Notes under the pieces: model-generated
Told to the model about the DNA's origin: nothing
Seen by the model: only the letters and a program-made list of their open reading frames with translations
Database searches by the model: none
Part shown: piece by piece, positions 9,044 through 55,791 of the stretch
Layout: the number at the start of each line of letters is the position of its first letter
How positions within the stretch are numbered: the first letter of the stretch is position 1
Translations under genes and position numbers: made by a program
Source of the DNA: Squalus acanthias
Lineage: Eukaryota
Assembly: GCA_030390025.1 (NCBI GenBank)
Contig: CM059449.1
Location: forward strand, 930,001-994,000
Reading direction: 5' to 3'
DNA: 64,000 nucleotides

Positions 9044-9600
9044 CTACAAAGATACTTTGTCACCTCTAATGTTTTGGAGAGGACAGATTTTCAGTGGTTC
9101 TGAGTTTTTGCCTCCTTGGTTCAATCCAGGACTGAACAAAGGATACAGATCCCCACTGATACCAGTGACTGTGTGGAGAAGAGACTGACTTTCAGGATTG
9201 TAAAATGACAGTGTTCGTTCCTTACAGTCCAGGTAAACTCCAATCTTCTTTGGTATCTGTCTCAGGATCAGACTGCGGAGGATTACACTTGAACTGACAG
9301 CTTTGTACTCCTCCTCATCTTTCCGCAGCACAGCCCAGCACTCAATGTTGGGGGAAGCATTAGTTGTGTTGTTCTCATCGACGGACTTCTTGGCAATGCC
9401 TATATCCCAGGCAGTCTTCACCCCCACCTCCACCTCCCAGTAATGTTTACCTGATGCAAATGGGGCAGAACCCAGAATGCGTGGATAATGATCAAACCTT
9501 TCCTTGGTGTCATGAGGCGTCTCTCGGTGGGTCACGCGCCTCTTGTCCCCGGACAGGTTTAACTCAGAATGTGCTGTGTTGGAATCCATGGTTACTTCAG
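9044..9600 (-). CDS. Gene A B30.2 (PRY/SPRY) terminal exon, open
   Basis: VTMDSNTAH, ERFD, SGKHYWEVEV, IGVYLDC, LSFY, LYPLFSP motifs; CTTTCATTTAG acceptor, phase 1. Confidence 0.95.
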
Positions 9601-12600
9601 CTAAATGAAAGATTACATTTTATTGGCAGATTGATTCCATGAGGTGAATTCTCACTTACCGCCGCGCGGAGAAGAGGCCGTAGCGGATTGGCCGCTGGTT
9701 TTACACACTTCAAAAGCTTACGGCCTCTTCCCTCTTCTTCCTTTCCAACCCCTCCTCCCAGCGACACTTCCCTTGGGCCGGGGACGGTCCCCTGGCTGAT
9801 CAACGGCCGGCTCCTGCTGCCTGATTTTAATGGCTGGGCAGCCGTTTCTTGCCAACATGCTGTCTCTTTTGGTCGGGAGTTCGACAAGGGGCCTGCTCAG
9901 GATAAACGGCCATTAAAATCGGCCGAGCCTGCGTGCTGCCACACGGGCACACCGCTCACTTTGCCAGGAGTGAAATTTCACCCCAATCTGCAGCAACATC
10001 CGAATCAAATGGAAGATTGCCGATGTGCAACATTTCTTGTGAAATGGTAAACCCGTTCTTTTCACACATCACAAATACTGAGCAGAGGAAATTCTCATTT
10101 GTTTATGGTGTCACGAAACAATGGCCCAGAAATTAAACACTGAGGGGTAAAAATTCACTTGGTTGCGCCTCCCGTTAGCGCCTTAAGAGGGCGCTAATGG
10201 GGTATTAAGCCGCTAACGCCCGGGCGCAGCGCTGTTTGCGCCGCTCGAGAACTTAACTTGAGATTGTGCGGCGGCGCTAAAACTTACCGCTGCGACCACC
10301 TGCGCGCGCAGATTGTGACGTCATTCCATGGTGCAACGCCCTTGGGGCGCCCCGGAGCGGAAATTGAGTGGCGCCCCCTGCCTTACCGCCTGGCGCTTCC
10401 AACGACCGGAAGACTGGAACGTTATCAATCGGTGTGGGGCTGGGGGGGGCGCTATTTAAAGGGGGCCTCTTCCTGTCTTTTTCTGTGGTCGACATTTATG
10501 CACCACTCGTTCTGAGAGAGAGAGAGAGATTCGGAGAGAGAGAGAGAGAGAGACTTCTACATTGACTCAACGCTTTGTGAGGTAGTTTTGCCTATTCATC
10601 CTAACTTTGTTGCTACTTTAGTTGCTGTACCTCATTACTTTTCTGGCAAAGAGAATATGGGGGCTGCAATGATTGGGGGCGTCGTCCTGCTCCAGCTGAA
10701 TCGGAGGATACAGAGACGCAGACAGAGAGTGGCAATGATGGCCAGACGGAGGAGGGCCATCAGGCGCATGTACAGGAGAGCTTACCCTCCCAGGGTATAT
10801 CGTGAACAGCTCTCCTACATCCATATGTCCGAGGAGCTGTGTTTGCGGAGGCTGCGATTCAGCAAGGAGATGGTCACTGAGCTCTGCCACCTGCTGCAGC
10901 CAGATCTGCAGCCTCAGCTGAGGTCCAGGACGTCTCTGTCGGTGGCAGTGAAGGTCACAGTGGCTTTGAACTTCTACGCCACTGGCTCATTCCAAGCTGC
11001 TGTTGGGGACCTCGCCAATATCTCCCAGTTTGCGGTGCATCGCTGCATCCGGCAGGTCACCAATGCCCTCTTCAGAAGGAGACGAGACTTCATCTCTTTC
11101 CCTATAACCCCAGACAAGCAGCGTGACCGTGCTCTGGGCTTTGCGAGGGTAGCGGGCTTCCCCATGGTGCAGGGCGCCATTGACTGCACGCATGTGGCTT
11201 TGCGTGCTCCGCGAGAGAATGCAGAGGAATTCAGGAACAGAAAGGGGTTCCATTCCTTGAATGTGCAGTTGGTCTGTGACCACAGACAGGTGATACTTGC
11301 TGTCAATGCCCACTATCCGGGCAGCTGCCACGATGCTTTCATCCTGCGCCAGACTACTGTGGCAGAAGTTTTCAAGGCACCACATCAGCCAGTTGGTTGG
11401 CTTCTGGGGGACAAGGGGTATGCATTGAGCACCTGGCTGATGACACCGCTCCGTACGCCAAACACCCCTGCTGAGCTGCGGTACAATGAAAGCCATCAAG
11501 CAACCAGGAACATTATTGAGCGCACAATCGGCGTGCTGAAACAACGGTTCCGCTGTCTGGACCATTCCGGAGGAGCCCTGCAGTACTCGCCTGAGCAAGT
11601 TTCGAACTTCGTAGTCGTGTGCTGCATGTTGCACAACATGGCAATCCTCAGGACCCAGCCAATGCCACCAGGCCTTGTAGCACCACCAGAGGAGGAGGAG
11701 GAAGAGGAGGAAGAGGACGAGGACGATGATCATCAGCAGCACCAAGGCAGGAGGGCGGCCCACAATGGTCAAACTGCAAGGGCCGTCCGTCAACGACTAA
11801 TAGCAAGCCGCTTCTAGGGCCCCTGCCATTGCTACAAACACTAATCAACCCAGCACGCAACCCCTAAGCCGGCCAAGGCACCAATAATTCCAATCACCAG
11901 CCATGTATATTTTGAATACAGAAACTTATTTATTTTACAAACTCTGTGTGTGTCAATTCCTCATGACAAACTCATAGAAATAAACACAAAAAAACAGTCA
12001 ATAACATAACTGGTTCTCACAACCTGGAGATAATGTCCAAAACACTAAACAAAAGTTGGACCATGAACCTCAGCCTTTAATAAAAAAATGACCAGCATTT
12101 TGGCACACCTCCTACTTTTTGCCCTTCAAGGGTGATCTCCTTCCCTTGCGCACTTCCCCCCTTCTAACCCTACTGCTCCTCCGTAATGGGACCTCAGTGG
12201 CTGCAGCAAGGCTGGTGGAAGGCTGCTGCTCGTCAGACCCTGACACTGCAGATGCCCCTGAAGGACGGCCTCGACCACTTCTGGGCCTGGAGGGCCCGGC
12301 TGCAGACTGCACCAACTCTGCATGGGCGGCAGCAGTCTGTCCTACAGGTGGTGGCAAGTGCAGTGGAGAAGTGACAGTGTTGGCAGCAGGAATGCTGTCA
12401 TCGTGAGAGAGGCCAGCAACTCCCTGCTCGCCCGACACACTGGCACTCCCACGGGGCAGCACTTCAGCATCCGGAGCAATCTGCCAGAGAACAGATTGCT
12501 GGCCTGCTGCGGCGCGGTGACAGCCCCGGGGACATGTGCACGAACCATCGAGGTTGGCAGCAGTCTGTGCTCGCGTGGCCTCCATCTGAGTCTGTATGAG

Positions 12601-55500: not shown

Positions 55501-55791
55501 AGCCCTGAGATCGGATACTGGATTGTGAGGCTGTTCCCCGGAAGGGACTATTATGCCGGCACCTCCCCCTCACGGACCCGCCTCATCCCGAGTGTGGATC
55601 CCCGGAAGATCGGGGTGTACCTGGACTATGAGGGCGGACAGGTGTCATTTTACAATGCGGACAACATGTCCCATCTCCACACTTTCACCCACACTTTCAC
55701 TGAGAGAATCTTTCCCGTCTTCGATACGGGACGGAATGTCGACGGGAAAAACCCCGCCCCGCTGACAATCTGCGAGGTTAAAGGTCACTGA
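31476..55791 (+). CDS. Butyrophilin-like gene B (leader-IgV-IgC-TM-B30.2), join(31476..31533,31625..31966,35055..35339,35477..35626,52514..52540,53074..53100,55247..55791), 477 aa
   Basis: All introns are GT-AG and phase 1; total 1434 nt with no internal stop. Kozak-like ccacaATGG with an in-frame upstream stop at 31458. Classic BTN exon layout; AATAAA at 55868. Extra micro-exons in the 16.9-kb intron cannot be excluded. Confidence 0.88.
31625..31966 (+). CDS. Gene B IgV exon (B7/BTN type)
   Basis: [22 protein letters not shown]...ELEW...YLGRSEIF...[20 protein letters not shown]; 342 nt with AG/GT boundaries. Confidence 0.95.
33745..34515 (-). mobile_element. CR1 3' fragment
   Basis: [24 protein letters not shown]. 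Confidence 0.88.
35055..35339 (+). CDS. Gene B IgC exon
   Basis: [10 protein letters not shown]...[16 protein letters not shown]...[11 protein letters not shown] IgC motifs; 285 nt, phase 1-1. Confidence 0.95.
35477..35626 (+). CDS. Gene B transmembrane exon
   Basis: [41 protein letters not shown] acceptor, AAG|GTAACA donor, 150 nt. Confidence 0.88.
36285..38265 (-). mobile_element. CR1 RT region, degenerate
   Basis: [34 protein letters not shown] across frameshifts. Confidence 0.9.
39142..42318 (-). mobile_element. Full-length CR1/L2-group LINE with tRNA-derived 5' head and a single EN-RT ORF (degenerate)
   Basis: A box TAGCGTAGTGG, B box GAGTTCAAATCC; YRPP, GDFN, QGSVLGP, FADD motifs; A-rich tail; GAGT TSD within a host CR1. 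Confidence 0.88.
43285..43931 (+). mobile_element. CR1 3' fragment nested in an antisense CR1
   Basis: [18 protein letters not shown]...[24 protein letters not shown]. Confidence 0.88.
44022..48570 (+). mobile_element. Copy of the tRNA-headed LINE family (no head), split by the 44798 CR1
   Basis: Segments 44022-44797 and 47820-48570 are similar to the reverse complement of 39142..42318. Confidence 0.85.
44798..47810 (+). mobile_element. 5'-truncated CR1 of the same family as 4037..8632 (ORF1 end plus ORF2), nested in another LINE
   Basis: ORF fragments nearly identical to those at 4117-7046; stops and frameshifts. Confidence 0.95.
49245..49845. mobile_element. Adjacent CR1 fragments (+ 49245-49455, - 49455-49845)
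   Basis: [14 protein letters not shown] segment and a reverse-strand CR1 3'UTR. Confidence 0.7.
50095..51198 (+). mobile_element. 3' part of the same LINE family
   Basis: [21 protein letters not shown]; conserved GCAATAAATGCTGGCCTTGCCAGCG tail. Confidence 0.9.
51572..52338 (-). mobile_element. L2 LINE 3' end with an internal 36-bp tandem expansion (51878..52052)
   Basis: GGRAFS...LWNSLP..LR motif, (TGT)n tail, [12 protein letters not shown] repeats. Confidence 0.85.
52514..52540 (+). CDS. Gene B 27-nt juxtamembrane micro-exon (DLQKQLEVS)
   Basis: tattctcttccag acceptor, CAG|GTAAGA donor, phase 1-1, heptad-like sequence. Confidence 0.8.
53074..53100 (+). CDS. Gene B 27-nt pre-B30.2 micro-exon (EWKEITMFA)
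   Basis: ctgtttttcag acceptor, CAG|GTGAGA donor; W-K motif typical of the exon before B30.2. Confidence 0.85.
53260..53302 (-). ncRNA. Hammerhead ribozyme (inverted copy)
   Basis: Exact reverse complement of 54075..54117. Confidence 0.8.
54075..54117 (+). ncRNA. Minimal type I hammerhead ribozyme in a PLE pseudo-LTR
   Basis: TCAC-CTGAGGA-A-GGAGC..GCTCC-GAAA-GCTT-GTGA: stem I, catalytic core, stem II and a palindromic AAGCTT stem III. Confidence 0.8.
54943..55153. repeat. ~61-72-bp tandem repeat (3 copies) upstream of the gene B B30.2 exon
   Basis: Repeated GGTCTGTGTGTGACCTGCAGGTACACTGAGCCGG... Confidence 0.9.
55247..55791 (+). CDS. Gene B B30.2 (PRY/SPRY) terminal exon
   Basis: [41 protein letters not shown] motifs; ttttattgcag acceptor; TGA stop. 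Confidence 0.96.

Follow-up and report, generated by a model that had tools for sequence, protein, structure and literature searches.

A divergent pair of butyrophilin-type genes in Squalus acanthias, one of which has no IgV exon

What butyrophilins (BTNs) do has been worked out chiefly in human, mouse and alpaca. The main text of PMC12841164 treats as an open question whether heteromeric BTNs, and their regulation of gamma-delta T cells, go back to the ancestor of jawed vertebrates; it also reports that BTNs expand class by class, and that BTN genes of sharks, rays and chimaera, found by BLAST with BTN3A1, lie in several cases on the MHC class I chromosome. Pairing of BTN3A1 with BTN3A2 requires their IgC domains, and heteromeric BTNs carry an EWK/DWR motif just before the B30.2 domain (PMC5798315). 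Residues H351, Y352 and W391 of BTN3A1 have roles in the phosphoantigen pocket (PMC7348870). An engineered BTN3A1 deprived of its IgV does not reach the cell surface alone, but is rescued by BTN3A2 or BTN3A3 and then signals (PMC10665462), and mouse Btnl1 and Btnl6 are transcribed head to head (PMC7387338). The main text of PMC12841164 mentions no IgV-less chain, head-to-head pair, horn shark or sawshark; its supplementary tree and structures may include the genes treated here. Likewise, the literature that we covered, which took in few subscription papers, describes no IgV-less BTN gene or head-to-head BTN pair in sharks.

The window (the whole stretch of 64,000 nucleotides analysed) contains two divergent BTN-type genes, A on the minus strand (ATG at 29625) and B on the plus strand (ATG at 31476), with 1,850 bp between them. 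Both encode a BTN IgC domain (Pfam PF22705), a transmembrane (TM) segment, two micro-exons and a PRY/SPRY (B30.2) domain, and the gene models bear out an earlier sequence-only reading in which two BTN-like genes point away from each other. The main copy of A is referred to as A1, and a partial second copy as A2.

9044 to 9600, minus strand: A1 B30.2 (PRY/SPRY) exon, an open reading frame
18840 to 18865, minus strand: A1 micro-exon 2, 26 nt, one base short, conserved Trp codon disrupted
20097 to 20122, minus strand: A1 micro-exon 1, 26 nt, one base under the 9 codons of the orthologues
26525 to 26653, minus strand: A1 TM exon with basic stop-transfer segment (exon models)
27081 to 27362, minus strand: A1 IgC exon, 282 nt, phase 1-1 (PF22705, E 7e-10)
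27363 to 29564, minus strand: A1 intron from signal exon to IgC exon, without IgV exon or remnant
29565 to 29628, minus strand: A1 signal-peptide exon, ATG at 29625 (acceptor just upstream; phase-1 donor)
29773 to 29874, plus strand: probable 5' first exon of gene B, matching the N-terminal extension of sawshark B
29850 to 30410, no strand: CpG island, candidate shared promoter (GC 0.60, CpG observed/expected 0.77 vs 0.43 for the window)
31476 to 31533, plus strand: B signal-peptide coding exon, ATG at 31476 (acceptor at 31468)
31625 to 31966, plus strand: B IgV exon (PF07686, E 8e-13)
35055 to 35339, plus strand: B IgC exon (PF22705, E 1e-20)
35477 to 35626, plus strand: B TM exon (exon model)
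52514 to 52540, plus strand: B micro-exon 1, 27 nt (exon model)
53074 to 53100, plus strand: B micro-exon 2, 27 nt, with EWK motif (exon model)
55247 to 55791, plus strand: B B30.2 exon, ending an intact 477-aa frame (AATAAA 76 nt downstream)

Gene B fits the full definition of a butyrophilin, with signal peptide, IgV, IgC, single TM and B30.2 domain on phase-1 exons (477 aa; Pfam V-set, PF22705, PRY and SPRY). Gene A follows the BTN exon order for a BTN-type IgC, a TM and a B30.2, but an N-terminal IgV is missing both from the DNA and from its two orthologues. Neither six-frame translation nor tblastn with the B IgV detected an intact or decayed IgV for gene A, and the sole match of a four-sequence IgV HMM in all six frames was the IgV of B. 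The intron in question carries a GIY-YIG/Penelope-like fragment (GIY-YIG at Pfam E 0.007, below the cut-off) and a dispersed repeat. The sequence-only reading had missed this absence, and the module differs from the one it proposed in that chain A has no IgV. It had also overlooked that the micro-exons of A1 measure 26 rather than 27 nt, and its contrast of paralogous IgC with very different B30.2 domains is reversed by identity: A and B are 42% identical in B30.2, the most similar domain tested, vs 33% in IgC. The B30.2 of A does sit on the longer tree stem (0.61 vs 0.27).

Orthologues of A that likewise lack an IgV occur in the horn shark Heterodontus francisci (Galeomorphii; 347 aa) and the sawshark Pristiophorus japonicus (Squalomorphii; 366 aa), and thus in both main shark clades. 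Their signal peptide is joined straight to the IgC, and the 9+9-residue micro-exon segments and the B30.2 are intact. Orthologues of B are also present, which upholds the idea of a shark two-gene BTN module, with one A match and one B match in each species; all are predicted proteins known from protein sequence alone, the H. francisci A and B records both stating a 74,466,956 bp contig. As the A orthologues come from two species only, the pair may be missing from other sharks and rays. The signal exon of A1 shares 18 of 20 residues with each A orthologue (P0001, P0002), its IgC is 80% identical to P0001 and 73% to P0002, and its B30.2 67% and 73%, respectively. Among 85 HMMER matches of A's IgC to 50% representatives, only P0001 exceeds 38% identity. 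For B, identity to the orthologues is 81-82% in IgC and 66-67% in IgV, its fastest-changing domain. In a B30.2 tree the A and B sequences of the three sharks form separate clades (support 100/100 and 100/99), but neither this tree (14 rows) nor an IgC tree (8 rows), both thinly sampled from named proteins or window exons, resolves A and B as sisters or places them relative to tetrapod BTNs. The top fold matches of a structure model of P0002 (pLDDT 70.6) are full-length BTN2A1/BTN3A chains (E 2.5e-23).

The interval between the genes, about 1.85 kb as the sequence-only reading had it, is not empty: it holds the CpG island (single copy within the window), a minisatellite, a CR1 fragment and probably 5' non-coding exons of both genes. 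Sawshark B has an N-terminal extension of 33 residues, whose best match among the approximately 128,000 window positions compared is a diagonal from +29773 (score 29, equalled in 1 of 200 shuffles; 4 of 500 in a protein-level test), although in an ungapped 5'-exon test with residues 1-30 forced this site ranked only third. The match lies 150-220 bp from the ATG of A, beside the CpG island, and for this reason the head-to-head layout and a shared promoter look old; sawshark seems to preserve the tight 5' linkage of A and B. The probable B exon is closed by a predicted donor at 29875 and is the one which overlaps the predicted first donor of A (29834, minus strand), both donors being scored with an approximate matrix, and the 5' ends of A and B probably adjoin or overlap. 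None of eight promoter motifs was enriched in the island over shuffles (lowest P 0.08). We consider it likely that the island is a promoter common to both genes. Scans of the window for tRNAs and Rfam families gave no matches.

Both copies of A in the window look damaged at the C-terminal end. With both 26-nt micro-exons included, the B30.2 of A1 is out of frame, and canonical splicing reaches a stop at 175 aa, ahead of that domain; either form with a single micro-exon also stops early. The frame is retained by skipping both micro-exons (342 aa) or by cryptic acceptors (362 or 369 aa), so alternative splicing could rescue A1, and among 13 candidate rows from a splice scan of the A introns no further frame-restoring micro-exon was orthologue-like. 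Two frameshifting deletions in 54 nt have P of about 0.03 at the neutral indel rate; one falls in an A-run and the other does not. The micro-exon splice sites are strong, and the signal, IgC and TM exons are intact. The frame through the B30.2 of A2 is also interrupted.

That second copy lies in a direct duplication of six collinear same-strand blocks (92-98% identity, 3,057 bp in total), whose offsets drop from 59.6 to 49.0 kb.

1-341, 2438-4019, 8748-9347, 9343-9746, 10052-10122 and 14952-15010, same strand: left-hand blocks, matching 59602-64000
59602 to 64000, plus strand: right-hand copy, collinear with 1-15010 in six blocks
62353 to 63582, minus strand: A2 B30.2 exon, split by an insertion; the remainder of A2 lies beyond the window
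62656 to 63322, no strand: 667-bp non-autonomous DNA transposon in the A2 SPRY, with imperfect terminal inverted repeats

The blocks span only the last exon of A, parts of its last intron and its 3' flank, and B occurs once in the window. The direct duplication previously noted is real, but its description as a cassette of the whole pair does not follow from what is visible, and a check of the flanks for repeated A/B cassettes, confined to the window, returned the last exon and flank of A alone. Nor is a functional cassette amplified in tandem supported: no second B is visible, both A copies are damaged, and each of the other sharks has one A and one B match. A simple tandem duplication would have carried B along, and a second copy would then fall outside the window, where we rather expect one to lie. 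The transposon in A2, flanked by a 3-bp target duplication with one mismatch, had gone unnoticed before. A2 also shows changes at conserved residues. Non-coding divergence between the copies is about 4.5%, and the region was apparently duplicated fairly recently in S. acanthias. The dN/dS of A1 vs A2 is 0.6, not distinguishable from 1 (P 0.42), and their B30.2 sequences differ by no small indels, vs about 5 expected if neutral (P 0.005).

Structure prediction makes an A/B heteromer plausible. A complex model of sawshark B (54-330) with A (21-175) scores 0.61, against 0.02 for the best of three controls; the runs have at least 69% of contacts in common, and partner pLDDT is at least 73. Of 78 solved pairs, 51 attained the pass mark, as did 2 of 108 mismatched ones (for eukaryotes, 71 of 105 solved and 2 of 126 unrelated pairs), but close relatives of a true partner pass too and the controls included no homodimer, such that the model does not distinguish a heterodimer from homodimers, and the pass possibly stems from likeness to solved BTN dimers. 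In the confident interface each chain contributes its first and last IgC strands, an arrangement that agrees with the V-shaped BTN dimer formed by IgC-IgC contact (PMC11969061). We regard an A/B heterodimer as somewhat probable.

The explanation that we favour, though as a whole it is an even call, is that A and B constitute an old shark BTN pair, head to head at one CpG-island promoter. B would yield a full BTN (signal, IgV, IgC, TM, short juxtamembrane, B30.2) and A, naturally without an IgV, the remaining series of parts ending in a divergent B30.2. The two are most likely co-expressed and would pair via IgC-IgC contacts and TM/juxtamembrane helices into an asymmetric receptor with a single ligand-binding IgV, that of B, and two unlike B30.2 domains. 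A would need B for exit from the ER, acting as partner, chaperone or intracellular sensor. Damage to the C-terminal ends of both visible A copies would postdate the duplication. A gamma-delta TCR is one putative ligand, more tentative than the pairing itself. Bolder still, and rather unlikely, would be an obligate one-headed heterodimer, an ancient promoter-sharing module in which A has lost its IgV at the gene level, the IgV of B engages a shark TCR (gamma, delta or NAR-TCR) at a germline surface and the divergent B30.2 of A senses an intracellular cue.

Several alternative explanations may account for the same data. A may simply be decaying in S. acanthias, with both visible copies pseudogenes, or the one-base losses may be assembly errors, within an ordinary segmental duplication, possibly involving A alone, at a BTN locus rich in repeats. 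We give this slightly less than an even chance: the clustered frameshifts, the transposon and substitutions of A2, the lack of a second B within the window and the self-repeated nature of 51% of the window all agree with it, yet it concerns the window copies, leaves the conserved IgV-less pair of the other two sharks untouched and is compatible with our favoured explanation. A1 can, moreover, be read in frame by the splice routes given above. As for assembly error, the B coding sequence is free of frameshifts, which makes random sequencing error an improbable source of both losses; one A1 deletion lies outside the A-run. Amplification as a functional tandem cassette that selects or activates shark gamma-delta T cells, in the manner of BTN2A1/BTN3A or BTNL3/8, would suit the collinear duplication, the heterodimer model, the fast-changing IgV of B and the EWK/EWR before B30.2, as in gamma-delta-regulating BTNs (PMC5798315). 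However, the copy numbers and damage described above, the absence of the H351, Y352 and W391 residues and the persistence of BTNs in squamates without gamma-delta T cells (main text of PMC12841164) render it improbable.

Two further possibilities concern what A does. A and B could share a promoter by ancestry, through inverted duplication, and work apart, with B forming homodimers and A an independent IgV-less membrane-anchored PRY/SPRY protein, perhaps a homodimer, or an ER or endosomal scaffold or sensor. BTN IgC domains do homodimerise by IgC-IgC contact (PMC11969061), the IgC domains of A and B have diverged considerably, and the complex tool is lenient towards relatives of a true partner. 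Nonetheless, we find this doubtful: IgV-deleted BTN3A chains remain untrafficked without a full-length partner (PMC10665462), 5' linkage seems to persist in sawshark, and the IgC of A, although there is no IgV for it to carry, keeps 73-80% identity across sharks. Alternatively, A may be a decoy or dominant negative that pairs with B and dilutes its homodimers, with IgV valency cut by half or B kept in the ER. BTN3A1 was a poorer stimulator together with IgV-deleted BTN3A2 than on its own (PMC10665462); A1, whose upstream exons and splice sites are sound, would give a 175-aa product without B30.2 that may be stable and tolerated given that its stop codon sits in the last exon; and 5' overlap of the genes could cause antisense interference too. 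Against this, the B30.2 is intact in both orthologues, open in A1 and devoid of small indels, implying an intracellular job for A, and a decoy role seems to us quite improbable.

On our favoured explanation, A should be retained in the ER without B, pairing should occur through IgC, and the IgV of B should be the sole ligand-binding head, making B-IgV tetramers a means of seeking the receptor. A conserved IgV-less BTN gene would offer a natural test of a division of labour known so far from engineered deletions. If the one-headed TCR-binding module exists, it would be a natural version of the V-deleted BTN3A1/BTN3A2 complex, and the placing of V domain and sensor on separate chains would be shown either to have evolved separately in cartilaginous fish or to be older than their divergence from bony vertebrates. 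Amplification carries little weight, as the visible extra copy is broken.

Databases (NCBI/UniRef) name the A orthologues 'erythroid membrane-associated protein-like', and ERMAP does resemble A in having one Ig domain, a TM and a B30.2. ERMAP keeps the IgV and lacks the IgC. The single Ig domain of A is a PF22705 IgC and not a V-set, and we rejected an identity with ERMAP; the name is misleading. ESM Atlas yielded only generic BTN and PRY/SPRY clusters. Two of them, from other chordates, 'BTNL8 isoform 3' (339 aa) and 'BTN3A3-like isoform X1' (373 aa), have IgC plus PRY/SPRY without a V-set among the three families listed; their names mark them as isoforms or predictions of genes that do carry an IgV, whereas shark A lacks the exon itself in the DNA. 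The best BTN-family PDB matches of A are BTNL8 (E 2e-33) and BTNL3 (E 6e-33), below the B30.2 domains of pyrin and TRIM21. In Btnl1/Btnl6 and BTNL3/BTNL8 the work is divided between a TCR-engaging chain and a chaperone chain, a likeness to A/B that we do not take as orthology. Btnl1 and Btnl6 are >130 kb apart with Btnl4 between them and both have an IgV, whereas 1.85 kb separates the shark ATGs and the 5' ends are probably adjacent.

The BTN3A system, to which B has its best PDB match (BTN3A1, E 7e-79), resembles the shark pair in its IgC-TM-juxtamembrane-B30.2 chains and in IgC pairing, which is only modelled in shark. BTN3A1 was compared with sawshark B in a direct alignment and its positions were transferred to the other shark chains by a further alignment; the three pocket residues scored (H351, Y352 and W391) are kept by no shark chain. 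The motif before B30.2 reads EWK in the window B, EWR in horn shark A, GWK in sawshark A and ERK in both B orthologues, and it is disrupted in A1; one chain per species keeps the Trp. Human BTN3A chains are near-identical and both bear an IgV, and natural truncation takes the B30.2 rather than the IgV, in contrast to the shark chains, which are 33-42% identical, with no IgV exon in A and a juxtamembrane of two 9-residue exons. The surface arrival of IgV-deleted BTN3A1 only with a partner provides a precedent for the IgV-less chain A, and it is the engineered complex of IgV-deleted BTN3A1 with BTN3A2 that the proposed shark receptor most resembles in drawing its V domain and B30.2 from different chains.

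Two butyrophilin-type (BTN) genes point apart in this window, as the sequence-only reading had claimed, with ATGs at 29625 (gene A, minus strand) and 31476 (gene B, plus strand). The proteins nearest to both come from the horn shark (Heterodontus francisci) and the sawshark (Pristiophorus japonicus), with 66-82% identity per exon, which marks the window as shark DNA. On its sequence, gene B is an ordinary, intact butyrophilin, with an unbroken frame of 477 aa and phase 1 at every junction, and is composed as follows:

31476-31533, plus strand, signal exon (gene model)
31625-31966, plus strand, IgV exon (Pfam)
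35055-35339, plus strand, IgC exon (Pfam)
35477-35626, plus strand, TM exon (gene model)
52514-52540 and 53074-53100, plus strand, micro-exons of 27 nt each (gene model)
55247-55791, plus strand, B30.2 exon (Pfam)

The top solved relative of the sawshark B orthologue is BTN3A1 (E 7e-79), and a search with the IgV of B gave 2 matches among 325 candidates, from horn shark and sawshark, as for A. In horn shark, the A record and the B record give contigs of equal length (74,466,956 bp). Self-repeated sequence makes up 51% of the window, and much of its repeat content is LINE-like, judged from reading frames; CR1-like LINE copies of 3 kb each, downstream of the first copy of A (A1; 4111-7095) and in a B intron (44795-47807), are 93% identical in opposite orientation. 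A perfect inverted repeat in a B intron (53207-54170; two 466-nt arms, 100% complementary, with a 32-nt spacer) is matched at its outer ends by a 92-bp repeat lying at 20567-20658, and may reflect either a recent fold-back event or an artefact of assembly. Short tandem arrays lie on either side of the GC-rich B30.2 exon of B (54979-55149, 72-bp units; 56074-56302, 32-bp units).

In gene A, the signal exon (ending at 29565 in phase 1) is spliced straight onto the IgC exon (27362-27081). Neither six-frame reading nor tblastn turned up an IgV in the 2.2-kb intron that separates these exons, and when the whole window was scanned in six frames with an IgV HMM, the IgV of B was the sole match. A search with the IgC of A returned 2 matches among 36 candidates, a horn shark protein of 347 aa and a sawshark protein of 366 aa, both with the order signal-IgC-TM-B30.2 and no V domain. 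Because IgV-less orthologues occur in these two species, one from each of the two main shark clades, the missing IgV is, by this comparison, no local accident. Their database name, 'ERMAP-like', is misleading, since ERMAP has kept its V domain and not its C domain. A full-length search with sawshark A (14 matches at E <=1e-20 among 3,039 candidates) revealed no additional A orthologue, and of the 85 matches from a HMMER search of 50% representatives one was A-like, so that gene A may be absent or unannotated in other cartilaginous fish.

In a B30.2 tree of 14 rows, A and B form separate three-shark clades (100/100 and 100/99, respectively), which the tree does not group as sisters. The A stem is the longer (0.61 vs 0.27), and the B30.2 of B is nearer to that of TRIM69 (55%) than to that of A. 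The B30.2 had earlier been singled out as the very different part of the two genes, a claim that the identities reverse, A and B sharing 42% in B30.2 vs 33% in IgC.

A splice acceptor lies a few bases upstream of both ATGs, and both genes therefore probably begin with a non-coding exon. The gap between the ATGs contains a CpG island (29850-30410; GC 0.60, o/e 0.77) that is single copy in the window, a 36-bp minisatellite and a CR1-like fragment; the minisatellite (30410-30683) adjoins the island and recurs at 51867-52052 in a B intron. None of the eight promoter motifs tested against shuffles was enriched. The sawshark B model is extended at its N-terminus by 33 residues, which its upstream exon must encode. 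In a protein-level local alignment against the six gap frames, this extension had its match at plus-strand positions 29782-29848 (score 42, reached by 4 of 500 shuffles), and the top diagonal of a codon-distance scan with free ends, over both strands of the whole window, starts at +29773 (score 29, runner-up 26, equalled by 1 of 200 shuffles). When the ends were fixed, the site came first for three of the four ranges tried and third for residues 1-30. Donors are predicted on the plus strand at 29875, after the matched stretch, and, weakly, on the minus strand at 29834 for A; consequently, the first exon of B probably lies 150-250 bp from the ATG of A, with a possible 5' overlap between the two transcripts. 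As the same stretch is the 5' exon of B in sawshark, the match also suggests that the head-to-head layout is old. Elsewhere, a GC-rich tandem array at 1011-1753 (within 801-2500; ~26 copies of a 25-29-bp unit), with a GC box beside an inverted CCAAT box in each unit and CpG o/e of up to 1.5, resembles a promoter or enhancer array.

The pair had also been described as duplicated as a cassette, which the window does not confirm: the last exon of A is duplicated, within six same-strand blocks (3,057 bp in total, 1-15010 vs 59602-64000, 92-98% identity), and no part of B falls within them. Block offsets fall from 59.6 to 49.0 kb because some sequence sits in one copy only, and the 1011-1753 array is not present in the right-hand duplicate. 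Since a simple tandem duplication would take B along, a second B beyond the window is quite likely. The amplification looks recent and lineage-specific, given a non-coding divergence of 4.5% between duplicates and one A and one B match each in horn shark and sawshark. A Harbinger/PIF-type transposon that seems to be intact occupies 10140-14300 in the last intron of A1 and is not in the second copy (A2), which the window takes in only in part; the ORFs of this transposon are:

10516-11817, plus strand, DDE_Tnp_4 ORF, 433 aa (E 3e-39)
13302-13898, minus strand, Myb/SANT ORF facing the DDE_Tnp_4 ORF (E 2e-9)

Both copies of A in the window bear damage. The SPRY of A2 is split by a 667-bp element with terminal inverted repeats (62656-63322), and some substitutions affect conserved residues. 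This insert has 98 bp in common, at 74%, with 14565-14660 beside the Harbinger element in the last intron of A1, so related non-autonomous elements inserted in both copies. The micro-exons of A1 are both 26 nt, where each encodes 9 residues in the orthologues; canonical splicing is predicted to run into a stop as the last exon begins, so that the 175-aa product would lack B30.2. The frame is lost with just one micro-exon but predicted to hold if both are skipped (342 aa) or if cryptic acceptors close by are used (362 or 369 aa). The pattern fits recent decay, exon skipping with B30.2 retained, or an assembly error. At the local neutral indel rate, two losses within the 54 nt of the micro-exons have P ~0.03; the B30.2 exons of A1 and A2 differ by 0 small indels vs ~5 expected (P 0.005), and their dN/dS of 0.6 is not different from 1.

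Human-type phosphoantigen sensing by the shark pair is unlikely, as equivalents of the BTN3A1 residues H351, Y352 and W391 (considered in passages of PMC7348870) were looked for by alignment and are not kept. An EWK/DWR motif precedes B30.2 (passages of PMC5798315), and a similar motif occurs in one chain per species: B in the window, A in horn shark and sawshark. At the EWK-like Trp (compared over 53074-53100, 18840-18865, the horn shark and sawshark A orthologues P0001 and P0002, and the further proteins P0015 and P0016), Trp is retained in B of the window and in A of horn shark and sawshark, and Arg stands in B of these two species. BTNs have already been described in sharks, rays and chimaera, and squamates, which lack gamma-delta T cells, retain them (PMC12841164); for shark T cells, btnl2 is the only one mentioned in passages of PMC11372145.

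Gene A has kept the parts used in pairing and lacks the TCR-binding part. IgC-IgC contacts dimerise BTN ectodomains (passages of PMC11969061), and IgC is required for BTN3A1-BTN3A2 pairing (passages of PMC5798315). A complex model of sawshark B (residues 54-330) with sawshark A (21-175), built without alignments of our own, scored 0.61 vs 0.02 for the best control, passing a mark that 51 of 78 solved pairs attain, against 2 of 108 mismatched ones (71 of 105 vs 2 of 126 among eukaryotes). At least 69% of contacts were common to runs, partner pLDDT was at least 73, and in both chains the confident interface is formed by the first and the last strand of the IgC. Structure prediction, proposed earlier as a check, favours A-B contact over controls, with a score that does not discriminate the heterodimer from homodimers; the pass may also reflect likeness to complexes of this kind that are already solved. 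We give an even chance to the explanation that this is an old head-to-head pair in which IgV-less A pairs with full-length B through IgC.

Shark BTNs, BTN heteromers and head-to-head Btnl genes are already known. The literature searched, which covered few subscription papers, yielded no IgV-less BTN gene that is conserved among sharks with a full-length partner close by, and the point of interest is this conserved headless, putative partner chain rather than the duplication. Shark A resembles the IgV-deleted BTN3A1 and BTN3A2 described in passages of PMC10665462, the nearest experimental parallel, but as a natural V-deleted chain. There, IgV-deleted BTN3A1 alone is not at the surface, and BTN3A2 or BTN3A3 rescues it, with good stimulation, an outcome under which A would be a partner or sensor chain; IgV-deleted BTN3A2 with BTN3A1 stimulates more weakly than BTN3A1 by itself, and a rival reading on that model would make A a damper of B. 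Mouse Btnl1/Btnl6, in which one chain binds the TCR and the other chaperones, likewise lie head to head, although passages of PMC7387338 place those two genes >130 kb apart, unlike the close shark pair.
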